A DNA stretch of 47,751 nt from a virus (lineage: Duplodnaviria; Heunggongvirae; Uroviricota; Caudoviricetes), in IMG/VR virus record IMGVR_UViG_2909267149_000003. One strand, 5' to 3'. Of this stretch, positions 34,429 through 35,826 are shown piece by piece. A program made the position numbers and the translations under genes. The notes under the pieces were generated by a model that was not told the origin of the DNA, did no database searches, and worked only from the letters and a program-made list of their open reading frames with translations. Within the stretch, counting starts at the first letter, position 1. Every line of letters starts with the position of its first letter.

Positions 34429-35202
34429 ATGACATCCTTTCAATTATCTTTGATTTCTCGTGAAATTGACGGCGAAATAATACATTTACGTGCCAAAGAT
34501 GGTTACATAAACGCCACATCAATGTGTAGAACTGCGGGCAAACTGCTCTCTGATTACACTAGACTCAAAACTACTCAAGAGTTTTTTGACGAATTATCAC
34601 GCGATATGGGAATTCCCATATCGGAGTTAATTCAATCATTTAAAGGTGGAAGACCTGAAAACCAAGGGACATGGGTGCATCCTGACATCGCTATTAATCT
34701 AGCGCAGTGGCTATCGCCCAAATTTGCAGTCCAGGTTTCAAGATGGGTTCGTGAATGGATGTCAGGGGAAAGAACTACAGCAGAAATGCCTGTACATTTA
34801 AAACGGTACATGGTTAATCGTAGTAGAATTCCTCACACGCACTTTTCTATTCTTAATGAACTGACATTCAACTTGGTTGCACCTCTTGAACAAGCAGGGT
34901 ACACACTCCCAGAAAAAATGGTTCCTGACATTTCACAAGGAAGAGTATTTTCACAATGGTTAAGAGATAATAGAAACGTAGAACCCAAAACATTCCCTAC
35001 CTATGACCATGAATATCCCGATGGTCGCGTATACCCTGCAAGGCTGTACCCAAATGAATATTTAGCAGATTTCAAAGAACATTTTAACAATATTTGGTTG
35101 CCGCAATATGCCCCGAAATACTTCGCTGACCGGGACAAAAAGGCTCTCGCCTTGATTGAAAAAATTATGCTACCTAACCTCGATGGCAATGAACAGTTCT
35201 AA
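34429..35202 (+). CDS. KilA-N domain protein (antirepressor-like)
   Basis: 257 aa; N-terminal KilA-N-type region (IHLRAKDGYINATSMCRTAGKLLSDY); encoded on the opposite strand to the surrounding early operon. Confidence 0.75.
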   Translation: MTSFQLSLISREIDGEIIHLRAKDGYINATSMCRTAGKLLSDYTRLKTTQEFFDELSRDMGIPISELIQSFKGGRPENQGTWVHPDIAINLAQWLSPKFAVQVSRWVREWMSGERTTAEMPVHLKRYMVNRSRIPHTHFSILNELTFNLVAPLEQAGYTLPEKMVPDISQGRVFSQWLRDNRNVEPKTFPTYDHEYPDGRVYPARLYPNEYLADFKEHFNNIWLPQYAPKYFADRDKKALALIEKIMLPNLDGNEQF

Positions 35203-35210
35203 ATGATTAG

Positions 35211-35238
35211 CCAGCCCCATAAGGGCTGGTTATTTAGT
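35211..35238 (+). terminator. rho-independent terminator after KilA-N gene
   Basis: CCAGCCC-CATAA-GGGCTGG hairpin followed by TTATTTAGTATT, 9 nt after the stop. Confidence 0.6.
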
Positions 35239-35242
35239 ATTA

Positions 35243-35326
35243 TCAACCCCAGCGGCAAATCGAATACACCACCAGCGCCACCGCCATCGCAATTCCTACC
35301 GTTGTGAATGCTTCAGGCCAGGTCAT
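35243..35326 (-). CDS. 27-aa small membrane protein coupled to upstream gene
   Basis: Not in ORF track. ATG overlaps the TGA of the 167-aa gene (ATGA); GGAGGA 9 nt upstream; MTWPEAFTTVGIAMAVALVVYSICRWG. Confidence 0.4.
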   Translation of the reverse strand: MTWPEAFTTVGIAMAVALVVYSICRWG

Positions 35327-35826
35327 CGTAAAACATCCTCCACGCTTATAAGTCCGCTTCGCTCCAGGTAGTCCATCACTTTATCCGGCAATTTGCAGCC
35401 CGGTTTCGGTTTCTTCAGTTGACTAACCAATTGTTTAACCAGCATTGTCAATTCGCGAACTTGTTTCCCGGGCTCCCCTTTGCCCTGAAGCAGGGCAGCG
35501 CGGCAAGCGTTCCATCCCTCAGCATATGTTTCAGTTACACCATCGAGATGGCATGTAAGCAAATCCATTTCTTCCGGCACTACGGGCGCTGGAAAAACGG
35601 CATAGGGTGGCGTCCATTTTGGCGCTTTATCTCCAGCCGAACGCTGATACCAGTCATCCGGTTTGTATTCATAAAAATCACCAACTGGCTCTGCTTCCAG
35701 CGATGCCAGAGCAATTTTGAATAATTCGCCCTCTACCCGTGCCATCCCTGAATTGGGGTGGCATTTCTCAATCGCTATTTTTAATTTAGCTTCTTCGATT
35801 AATTGCTTTTTGGTTAATTCAGTCAT
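35323..35826 (-). CDS. hypothetical phage early protein
   Basis: 167 aa; a GCCC-GAAA-GGGC hairpin sits between the AGGAGG and the start codon. Confidence 0.6.
   Translation of the reverse strand: MTELTKKQLIEEAKLKIAIEKCHPNSGMARVEGELFKIALASLEAEPVGDFYEYKPDDWYQRSAGDKAPKWTPPYAVFPAPVVPEEMDLLTCHLDGVTETYAEGWNACRAALLQGKGEPGKQVRELTMLVKQLVSQLKKPKPGCKLPDKVMDYLERSGLISVEDVLR

Follow-up and report, generated by a model that had tools for sequence, protein, structure and literature searches.

The closest described relatives of the system considered here are the BstA proteins, abortive-infection proteins encoded by prophages, which co-localise with phage DNA and block phage replication (Owen et al., PMC8585504). 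In a DefenseFinder survey of Escherichia coli (PMC10121019), the sole reported location of bstA was tRNA-Arg, in lambda-like prophages, and our literature search turned up no paper on the mechanism of BstA later than 2021. The present analysis concerns positions 34,429 to 35,826 of a viral DNA of 47,751 nucleotides (IMG/VR record IMGVR_UViG_2909267149_000003, Caudoviricetes), hereafter called the window, which is a Rac-like lambdoid prophage with ttcA as its integration site. Here a plus-strand gene for a KilA-N protein converges on a minus-strand gene for a protein of 167 residues and on an open reading frame (ORF) of 27 codons that overlaps the end of the latter. We consider it probable that two independent things have been joined in this place, namely the end of an early-right operon with a translationally coupled peptide and a moron carrying a BstA-like gene.

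Like BstA-BTP1, -Kp and -Ec (PMC8585504), the KilA-N protein is prophage-borne and encoded by a single gene, combining a KilA-N-type N-domain with a conserved C-domain; it also falls into the same PHROG family, and close alleles of its gene stand directly after a prophage repressor. Unlike BstA-BTP1, the N-domain of which is seen by remote homology only, the window protein has a canonical Pfam KilA-N domain; unlike the tested BstA proteins, it has 257 residues instead of about 300, with a C-domain identity of 23-32%; and unlike bstA, its gene lies between replication or accessory genes and hok/sok, converging on the early operon, with no BTP1-like aba repeat found. Lambdoid morons are reportedly inserts composed of a promoter, a gene and a terminator. 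The window insert resembles them in being discrete, in lying between genes that are adjacent in relatives, in bringing along a promoter-like site as well as a terminator and in being probably expressed by the prophage; nothing essential differs, and the window insert additionally provides the hok promoter next to it with a -35 hexamer.

The peptide can be compared with two other kinds of small proteins. Small membrane proteins of E. coli such as KdpF, AcrZ, CydX and MgtS have fewer than 50 residues and one hydrophobic helix, have been missed by annotation and are often encoded by the last or an overlapping cistron. The 27-residue peptide is like them in all these respects, while differing in being phage-borne and restricted to Escherichia/Shigella-type prophages; it has no significant homology to such proteins, the best match being KdpF at E=0.024, below the cutoff. 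Type I toxins (Hok, TisB, Ibs, DinQ) are short hydrophobic peptides too, and in many phages the 27-codon ORF stands beside hok/sok; unlike the genes of these toxins, it is coupled to a larger gene and lacks a dedicated promoter, structured leader or antisense RNA. The features on which the following argument depends are listed here in window coordinates.

34087..35248, plus strand: moron of 1,162 bp, consisting of a 342-bp leader with a promoter-like site, the BstA-like gene and a terminator
34232-34242 and 34263-34273, plus strand: two direct repeats TTTGCCAYTTG in the leader, 91% identical, with 31-nt spacing
34264..34291, plus strand: promoter-like site of the KilA-N gene (TTGCCA, 16 nt, AAAAAT), with 9/12 matches in the consensus scan
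34429..35202, plus strand: gene for the 257-residue putative BstA-family protein, with KilA-N at about residues 8-112 and a BstA-type C-domain at about 120-250
35208..35232, plus strand: intrinsic terminator hairpin of the KilA-N gene, 10-bp stem with 6 G-C, 11 nt past the stop of the 27-codon ORF
35243..35326, minus strand: candidate gene for a 27-residue single-helix membrane microprotein, encoding MTWPEAFTTVGIAMAVALVVYSICRWG, its ATG overlapping the TGA of the 167-residue gene as ATGA
35323..35826, minus strand: gene for the 167-residue mosaic accessory protein (phrog_660, E=2.7e-50), with which the series of large genes in the early-right operon ends
33743..34109, minus strand: hok/sok type I toxin-antitoxin locus, originally adjacent to the 27-codon ORF on its downstream side

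An earlier note on this DNA, made from the letters alone, had listed three ORFs, two of them overlapping as ATGA, and a hairpin, all of which are present where it had placed them. It had also called the KilA-N gene antisense and converging: the gene is indeed convergent, while being antisense to no gene of the minus strand.

The insertion emerges from comparison with phage 933W, whose DNA aligns with window positions 35326-35249 (87%, the small ORF) and then with 34086-33743 (91%, into hok/sok). The gap between these blocks measures about 35 nt in 933W as well as in phage pPE4, so that in the window an insert of 1,162 bp separates the 27-codon ORF from hok/sok. The leader of this insert is found in just 117 of the 5426 complete E. 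coli genomes, and nucleotide homology to other KilA-N alleles (77%) is limited to the coding sequence. At its far end the terminator scan finds a T-rich tail after the hairpin on the plus strand only, and the folding energy of the RNA is -18.7 kcal/mol (z=-4.0) on that strand and -16.0 kcal/mol (z=-2.3), without a U-tract, on the other; the hairpin is thus a good terminator for the KilA-N gene, the strong one that had been predicted for it, and a poor terminator for the minus-strand pair. The insert has in common with morons that it lies between genes adjacent in related phages and has its own terminator, the promoter being a consensus match only. The leader repeats overlap the predicted -35 hexamer and may be a protein-binding site or a product of chance, as short two-copy repeats can be. 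On the other side, a promoter-like site of hok occupies 34109-34081 (minus strand), with its -10 hexamer (TAGAAT) exactly where 933W homology resumes and its -35 hexamer (TTGGCA) within the inserted moron DNA; the insertion has therefore rebuilt the hok promoter.

The two parts are also distributed independently of each other. A degenerate DNA pattern for the small ORF retrieved 120 IMG/VR loci (the analysis set comprising 127 loci), and the KilA-N moron is present at 2 of these 120, the hok/sok promoter follows directly, within 160 nt, at 54, and other DNA is found at the remaining 64. None of the 56 KilA-N alleles of other than the window type, most of which follow a CI-type repressor, has the small ORF nearby, and in one locus with a window-type allele (L129) the moron stands beside a 933W-type upstream gene that replaces the 167-residue gene.

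Concerning the small ORF itself, the 127 loci comprise 59 distinct nucleotide versions, of which 58 have exactly 27 codons and one lacks a stop codon; among the 58, the start codon is ATG in 54 and GTG in 2. A motif resembling a Shine-Dalgarno sequence, GGAGG in the window, precedes the start by 4-16 nt in 127/127 loci, and the stop codon of the upstream gene is overlapped as ATGA in 102 and as TGATG in 16, amounting to coupling in 118 of the 127. This constancy is maintained behind upstream genes of unrelated families, namely phrog_660, phrog_1621 (L0139 of 933W) and DUF551/phrog_924, and in front of 56 distinct types of downstream flank. The search pattern fixes residues, and conservation at W3, P4, D/E5, A6, Y21, S22, R25 and W26 is accordingly there by construction, even if variants P4S and R25H exist. 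In the codons that the pattern leaves free, third positions are the most variable and the ratio of nonsynonymous to synonymous polymorphism (pN/pS) is 0.46, while residues 7-24 are hydrophobic in 36/36 peptide variants. Hence the frame looks like that of a genuine, translationally coupled, single-helix membrane peptide, much as the earlier note had anticipated.

The ORF is as widespread as it is rarely annotated. With tblastn it is found in 94 phage records at 59-100% identity, and it is present in 1630 of the 5426 complete E. coli genomes (about 30%), in up to 7 copies and at 163 places on plasmids, phage-plasmids being among its carriers; the features annotated under these genome matches bear names like that of the upstream gene which overlaps it. 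In species-representative genomes its occurrence is limited to Escherichia and Shigella; it is very common in prophages of pathogenic E. coli, 933W and the Shiga toxin phages of Sakai included. It carries no annotation in the identical RefSeq record, in phage ON470616 or in the RefSeq records inspected, and a few GenBank records name it 'hypothetical' or 'bacteriophage protein'.

How far could the same 84 nt have been kept for another reason, the 27-codon frame being untranslated and conserved as a DNA junction (a recombination linker of mosaic modules) or as the 3' end of a transcript? We regard this as rather unlikely, in spite of several facts that speak for it and hence weigh against the peptide: the ORF always stands at the boundary of unrelated upstream and downstream modules, the RefSeq records inspected leave it unannotated, and a search of literature and supplements found no mention of the peptide and no translation data. 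Moreover, the opposite-strand frame that shares third positions has a pN/pS of 0.33, so that the value of 0.46 is no better, and the topology of the peptide in the membrane, as well as its function, is purely what we infer. Since the antisense frame shares third positions, the ratio of nonsynonymous to synonymous substitutions (dN/dS) failed as a strand test and was dropped in favour of an ORF-boundary test; what decides the assignment of the strand is therefore the conservation of start, stop and Shine-Dalgarno-like motif. In 87 contexts neither the start nor the stop nor the length of the opposite-strand frame is conserved, from which it follows that the sense frame would be the coding one. 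An untranslated junction is also hard to reconcile with the constant length and start, with Shine-Dalgarno-like motifs retained behind three unrelated gene ends, with the excess of variation at third positions and with replacements that without exception leave the helix hydrophobic.

A translated peptide would still have to be distinguished from a toxin. In the interval 35187-35400 there is no promoter-like site and no Rfam RNA, and the small ORF thus has neither promoter nor leader nor antisense RNA of its own; for the toxin or exclusion role that had been suggested for the peptide we found no evidence. One homologue of the 167-residue protein, P0076, ends in ...VEDVLRWPGLRHSQQ, having lost the upstream stop codon, and its translation enters the DNA of the small ORF in the wrong frame; a natural variant of this type would abolish the coupled peptide.

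The partner gene of the pair corresponds to RefSeq WP_000137958.1, 'hypothetical protein'. The earlier note had called its product unknown, and remote-homology searches have changed little, giving phrog_660 and otherwise no significant match in Pfam, NCBIfam, PADLOC or PDB. A search at E<=0.001 collected 1540 homologues; the 120 listed carry without exception the names hypothetical, prophage protein or DUF551. The aligned members share an N-terminal helical hairpin (...IALASLEAEPV) and a C-terminal module (ELTMLVKQL...KLPDKAMDYLxRNGLISVEDVLR), between which the middle is freely swapped; in the AlphaFold2 model (pLDDT, the predicted local distance difference test, 59) just the N-terminal hairpin is confident. 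The N-module also stands at the head of DUF551 proteins and is all that the 167-residue protein has in common with them, no Pfam DUF551 domain being found in it. Cluster membership had suggested a fusion of the small ORF to DUF551 proteins, which frame analysis dismissed as an artefact of clustering or of partial ORFs. Kinship with lambda Ea22 was rejected as well (BLASTP E=3.1), the 'Ea22-like' labels on neighbours coming from annotators. The C-module is shared by gp45 of N15, where the next ORF (gp45.1), considered as an analogue of the peptide, was discarded as an unrelated hydrophilic ORF of 18 residues; C-module and peptide are therefore not obligatorily linked.

Turning to the gene carried by the moron, Pfam KilA-N (PF04383) matches residues 14-112 of its product (E=4.3e-27), and residues 1-254 align with positions 6-303 of the 304 in the profile of phrog_6287, 'BstA abortive infection system, replication inhibitor' (E=2.7e-89), to which BstA of Salmonella phage BTP1 also belongs (E=2.1e-150). 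The PADLOC model of BstA recognises residues 119-238 (E=3.2e-21), BLASTP against BstA-BTP1 aligns residues 125-251 at 32% identity (142 columns, E=3e-16), and hhalign, with a profile built from 32 homologues, gives a collinear alignment to BstA-BTP1 of 187 columns (residues 45-235 versus 67-279, probability 97.9%). The protein therefore combines, as members of the BstA family do, an N-terminal KilA-N or KilA-N-like domain with a collinear C-domain homologous to residues ~156-307 of BstA-BTP1. A protein of BstA-Ec type shares 42% identity with BstA-BTP1 but only 23% with the C-half of the window protein, which by these comparisons is placed in a BstA subfamily distinct from the experimentally tested members. 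The homologue search collected 2652 proteins at E<=0.001, spanning many Proteobacteria; the best 120 of these 2652 all have the precomputed Pfam pair PF04383+PF26567, predicted to be the canonical KilA-N plus BstA C-domain, and about 55-60% identity is kept across Proteobacteria. Furthermore, alleles at 78-88% protein identity lie directly downstream of repressors with a helix-turn-helix (HTH) and a Peptidase_S24 domain, some of which are essentially lambda CI; this placement holds for 9/10 representatives by Pfam and for 46/56 alleles by the GxSM motif, and corresponds to the classical slot of bstA (PMC8585504). Very probably, then, the KilA-N gene is of the exclusion type and a member of the BstA abortive-infection family, and for this gene the idea of exclusion put forward in the earlier note holds.

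Some observations do not favour the BstA-like moron. The C-domain is just 32% identical to that of BstA-BTP1 and 23% to that of the BstA-Ec type, and the PADLOC model covers the C-half only; because that model spans only half of the protein, the gene, probably an anti-phage gene, is likely to be under-detected by standard tools. The window allele does not lie downstream of the repressor, from which it is ~4.4 kb away, and stands instead between the 27-codon ORF and hok/sok. Its promoter call (9/12) is weak, in a region that is overall poorer in promoter-like sites than shuffled controls. Finally, no direct repeat in the style of BTP1 extends across its start codon: the scan, which does pick up CCCGCC in BTP1, finds 0, against a chance expectation of ~1.

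It could also be argued that the protein is a DNA-binding regulator, or an antirepressor, of the lysis-lysogeny switch of the prophage and has no part in defence. KilA-N domains are known in regulators, the N-domain alone matches phrog_129, 'transcriptional regulator' (9e-25), and phage records annotate the protein as 'DNA-binding protein'. We nevertheless find this improbable, given that homology to BstA is collinear over the full length, C-domain included, and that homologues are found in the slot where BstA genes lie; an own promoter-like site and terminator, opposed to the early operon, would fit a moron expressed in the lysogen and not a gene of the lytic switch. No antirepressor-type C-terminal domain is found in the protein, for which Pfam gives KilA-N alone and the C-half of which is BstA-type, and of the proposal that it might be an antirepressor or effector-fused the antirepressor part has to be given up. 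Least tenable of all, and very improbable in our judgement, is the three-gene accessory unit of the earlier note, a regulatory or exclusion module with KilA-N as antirepressor and the peptide as toxin-like effector: the three genes are adjacent and convergent with one common hairpin, and 16/16 window-type KilA-N alleles have a copy of the small ORF beside them, but such adjacency is expected from the single insertion event seen against 933W and pPE4, and the independent distribution of the KilA-N gene and the 167/27-residue pair, together with the lack of an own promoter or antisense RNA for the small ORF, leaves no such module.

The reading of the locus as a BstA-like moron beside an operon end raises the question of self-immunity. 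In BTP1, immunity of the carrier phage is provided by aba, a 63-bp DNA element that spans the start codon of bstA and has CCCGCC repeats at its ends, and aba elements are allele-specific and defined in sequence for BTP1 only (PMC8585504). For these reasons, absence of the BTP1 form leaves room for another form in the window. Its KilA-N and 167-residue proteins are 100% identical in the deposited phage genomes vB_EcoS-673R7, -666R9 and -613R10, and the deposition of near-identical DNA as complete phage genomes suggests a viable phage; some self-immunity would therefore be needed. Further down the minus strand there is a Q-like gene, the terminator scan finds no good minus-strand terminator before it, and in lytic growth early transcripts probably run through the KilA-N gene in the antisense direction.

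A conserved ACACACAGCGCG box with a hairpin after it is present in five other prophages, in the spacer that separates the bstA-like gene from the repressor, at these positions:

L178:2905-2975, ACACACAGCGCG box and hairpin
L181:2698-2768, ACACACAGCGCG box and hairpin
L182:2917-2987, ACACACAGCGCG box and hairpin
L184:2931-3001, ACACACAGCGCG box and hairpin
L185:2919-2989, ACACACAGCGCG box and hairpin

The hairpin shows compensatory changes in 5/8 pairs; box and hairpin match no Rfam family and are not present in the window allele. In that subfamily they could serve as a leader RNA or as an aba-type element. In L185 a GCATTTGCCA string, which resembles the leader repeat of the window, stands before the conserved box.

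With regard to the surroundings, the region 34200-36000 is 100% identical in the E. coli chromosome NZ_CP023820 and in ~100 further complete genomes. In the identical record, as annotated by RefSeq, the minus-strand order is cro-like HTH, ydaT, O-like, ydaV, DUF1627, DUF977 and the 167-residue hypothetical protein, followed further along by the plus-strand KilA-N gene, Hok/Gef, the plus-strand DUF1971 gene, DUF1367, DUF1364 and the Q-like DUF1133; the immunity region of the window carries ydaF and sieB. Within the hok/sok locus, sok corresponds to Rfam RF01794 (101.5 bits, 33904-34074) and the Hok/Gef coding sequence occupies 33781-33906. The DUF1971-domain gene (33333-33698, plus strand, E=3.5e-26), between hok and the nin-like genes, is not found at that position in phage pPE4 and has the appearance of another opposite-strand moron within this stretch. 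Toxin and exclusion modules are numerous in this prophage (RalA/ralR, hok/sok, ydaT, kilR, sieB). Two tRNA genes adjoin the late-gene region, and the RalA antitoxin small RNA (Rfam RF02694, 225 bits) lies near ralR; the sites are 30545-30695 and 46017-46195, both on the minus strand. The DUF977 gene is broken into ORFs of 46 and 98 residues in two frames (35988-36424, minus strand), probably due to a frameshift or a divergent patch at ~36284-36300, and is intact, with 140 residues, in NZ_CP023820 and phage ON470616. About 50 nt upstream of the 167-residue start there is a C8 homopolymer (35876-35883; G8 on the coding strand), the length of which among near-identical loci is 7 (n=3), 8 (n=11) or 9 (n=1); this variation could be real slippage or assembly error.

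How, then, might the joined parts operate? Most likely, the 27-residue peptide would be made by translational coupling upon transcription of the operon and would form a minimal helix inserted in the inner membrane, bordered by aromatic residues at either interface, its single Arg being on the cytoplasmic side; by analogy with other bacterial microproteins, it might bind and modulate a larger membrane protein. The 1.16-kb moron would have inserted exactly between the peptide gene and hok/sok, to be transcribed against the early operon, and its protein would combine an APSES-like KilA-N DNA-binding domain with the BstA C-domain. By homology with the BstA of BTP1, Klebsiella and E. coli, the lysogen would produce this protein, which on superinfection would associate with the phage DNA being replicated and block that replication, the infected cell dying without release of phage. 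Self-immunity might come from a cognate aba-type DNA element that is not yet recognisable, or from antisense read-through of the early operon silencing the BstA-like gene. A bolder combination of ideas, which we offer only as a doubtful one, is that the peptide is a widespread membrane effector acting on an inner-membrane protein or the membrane potential of the host early in lytic growth, which would mean, for example, exclusion, timing or interplay with the adjacent Hok, and, separately, that the BstA-like gene owes its self-immunity to that read-through and not to aba.

In sum, the kind of gene is known, that is BstA, its location in a Rac-like prophage at ttcA is non-canonical, and behind it stands a large BstA-like subfamily with canonical KilA-N, to judge from the number of homologues collected. 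Lying outside the repressor slot and lacking a BTP1-like aba, the window allele offers a convenient case for learning how self-immunity works, and the 27-codon ORF at its side is a cheap and well-supported candidate for a microprotein.

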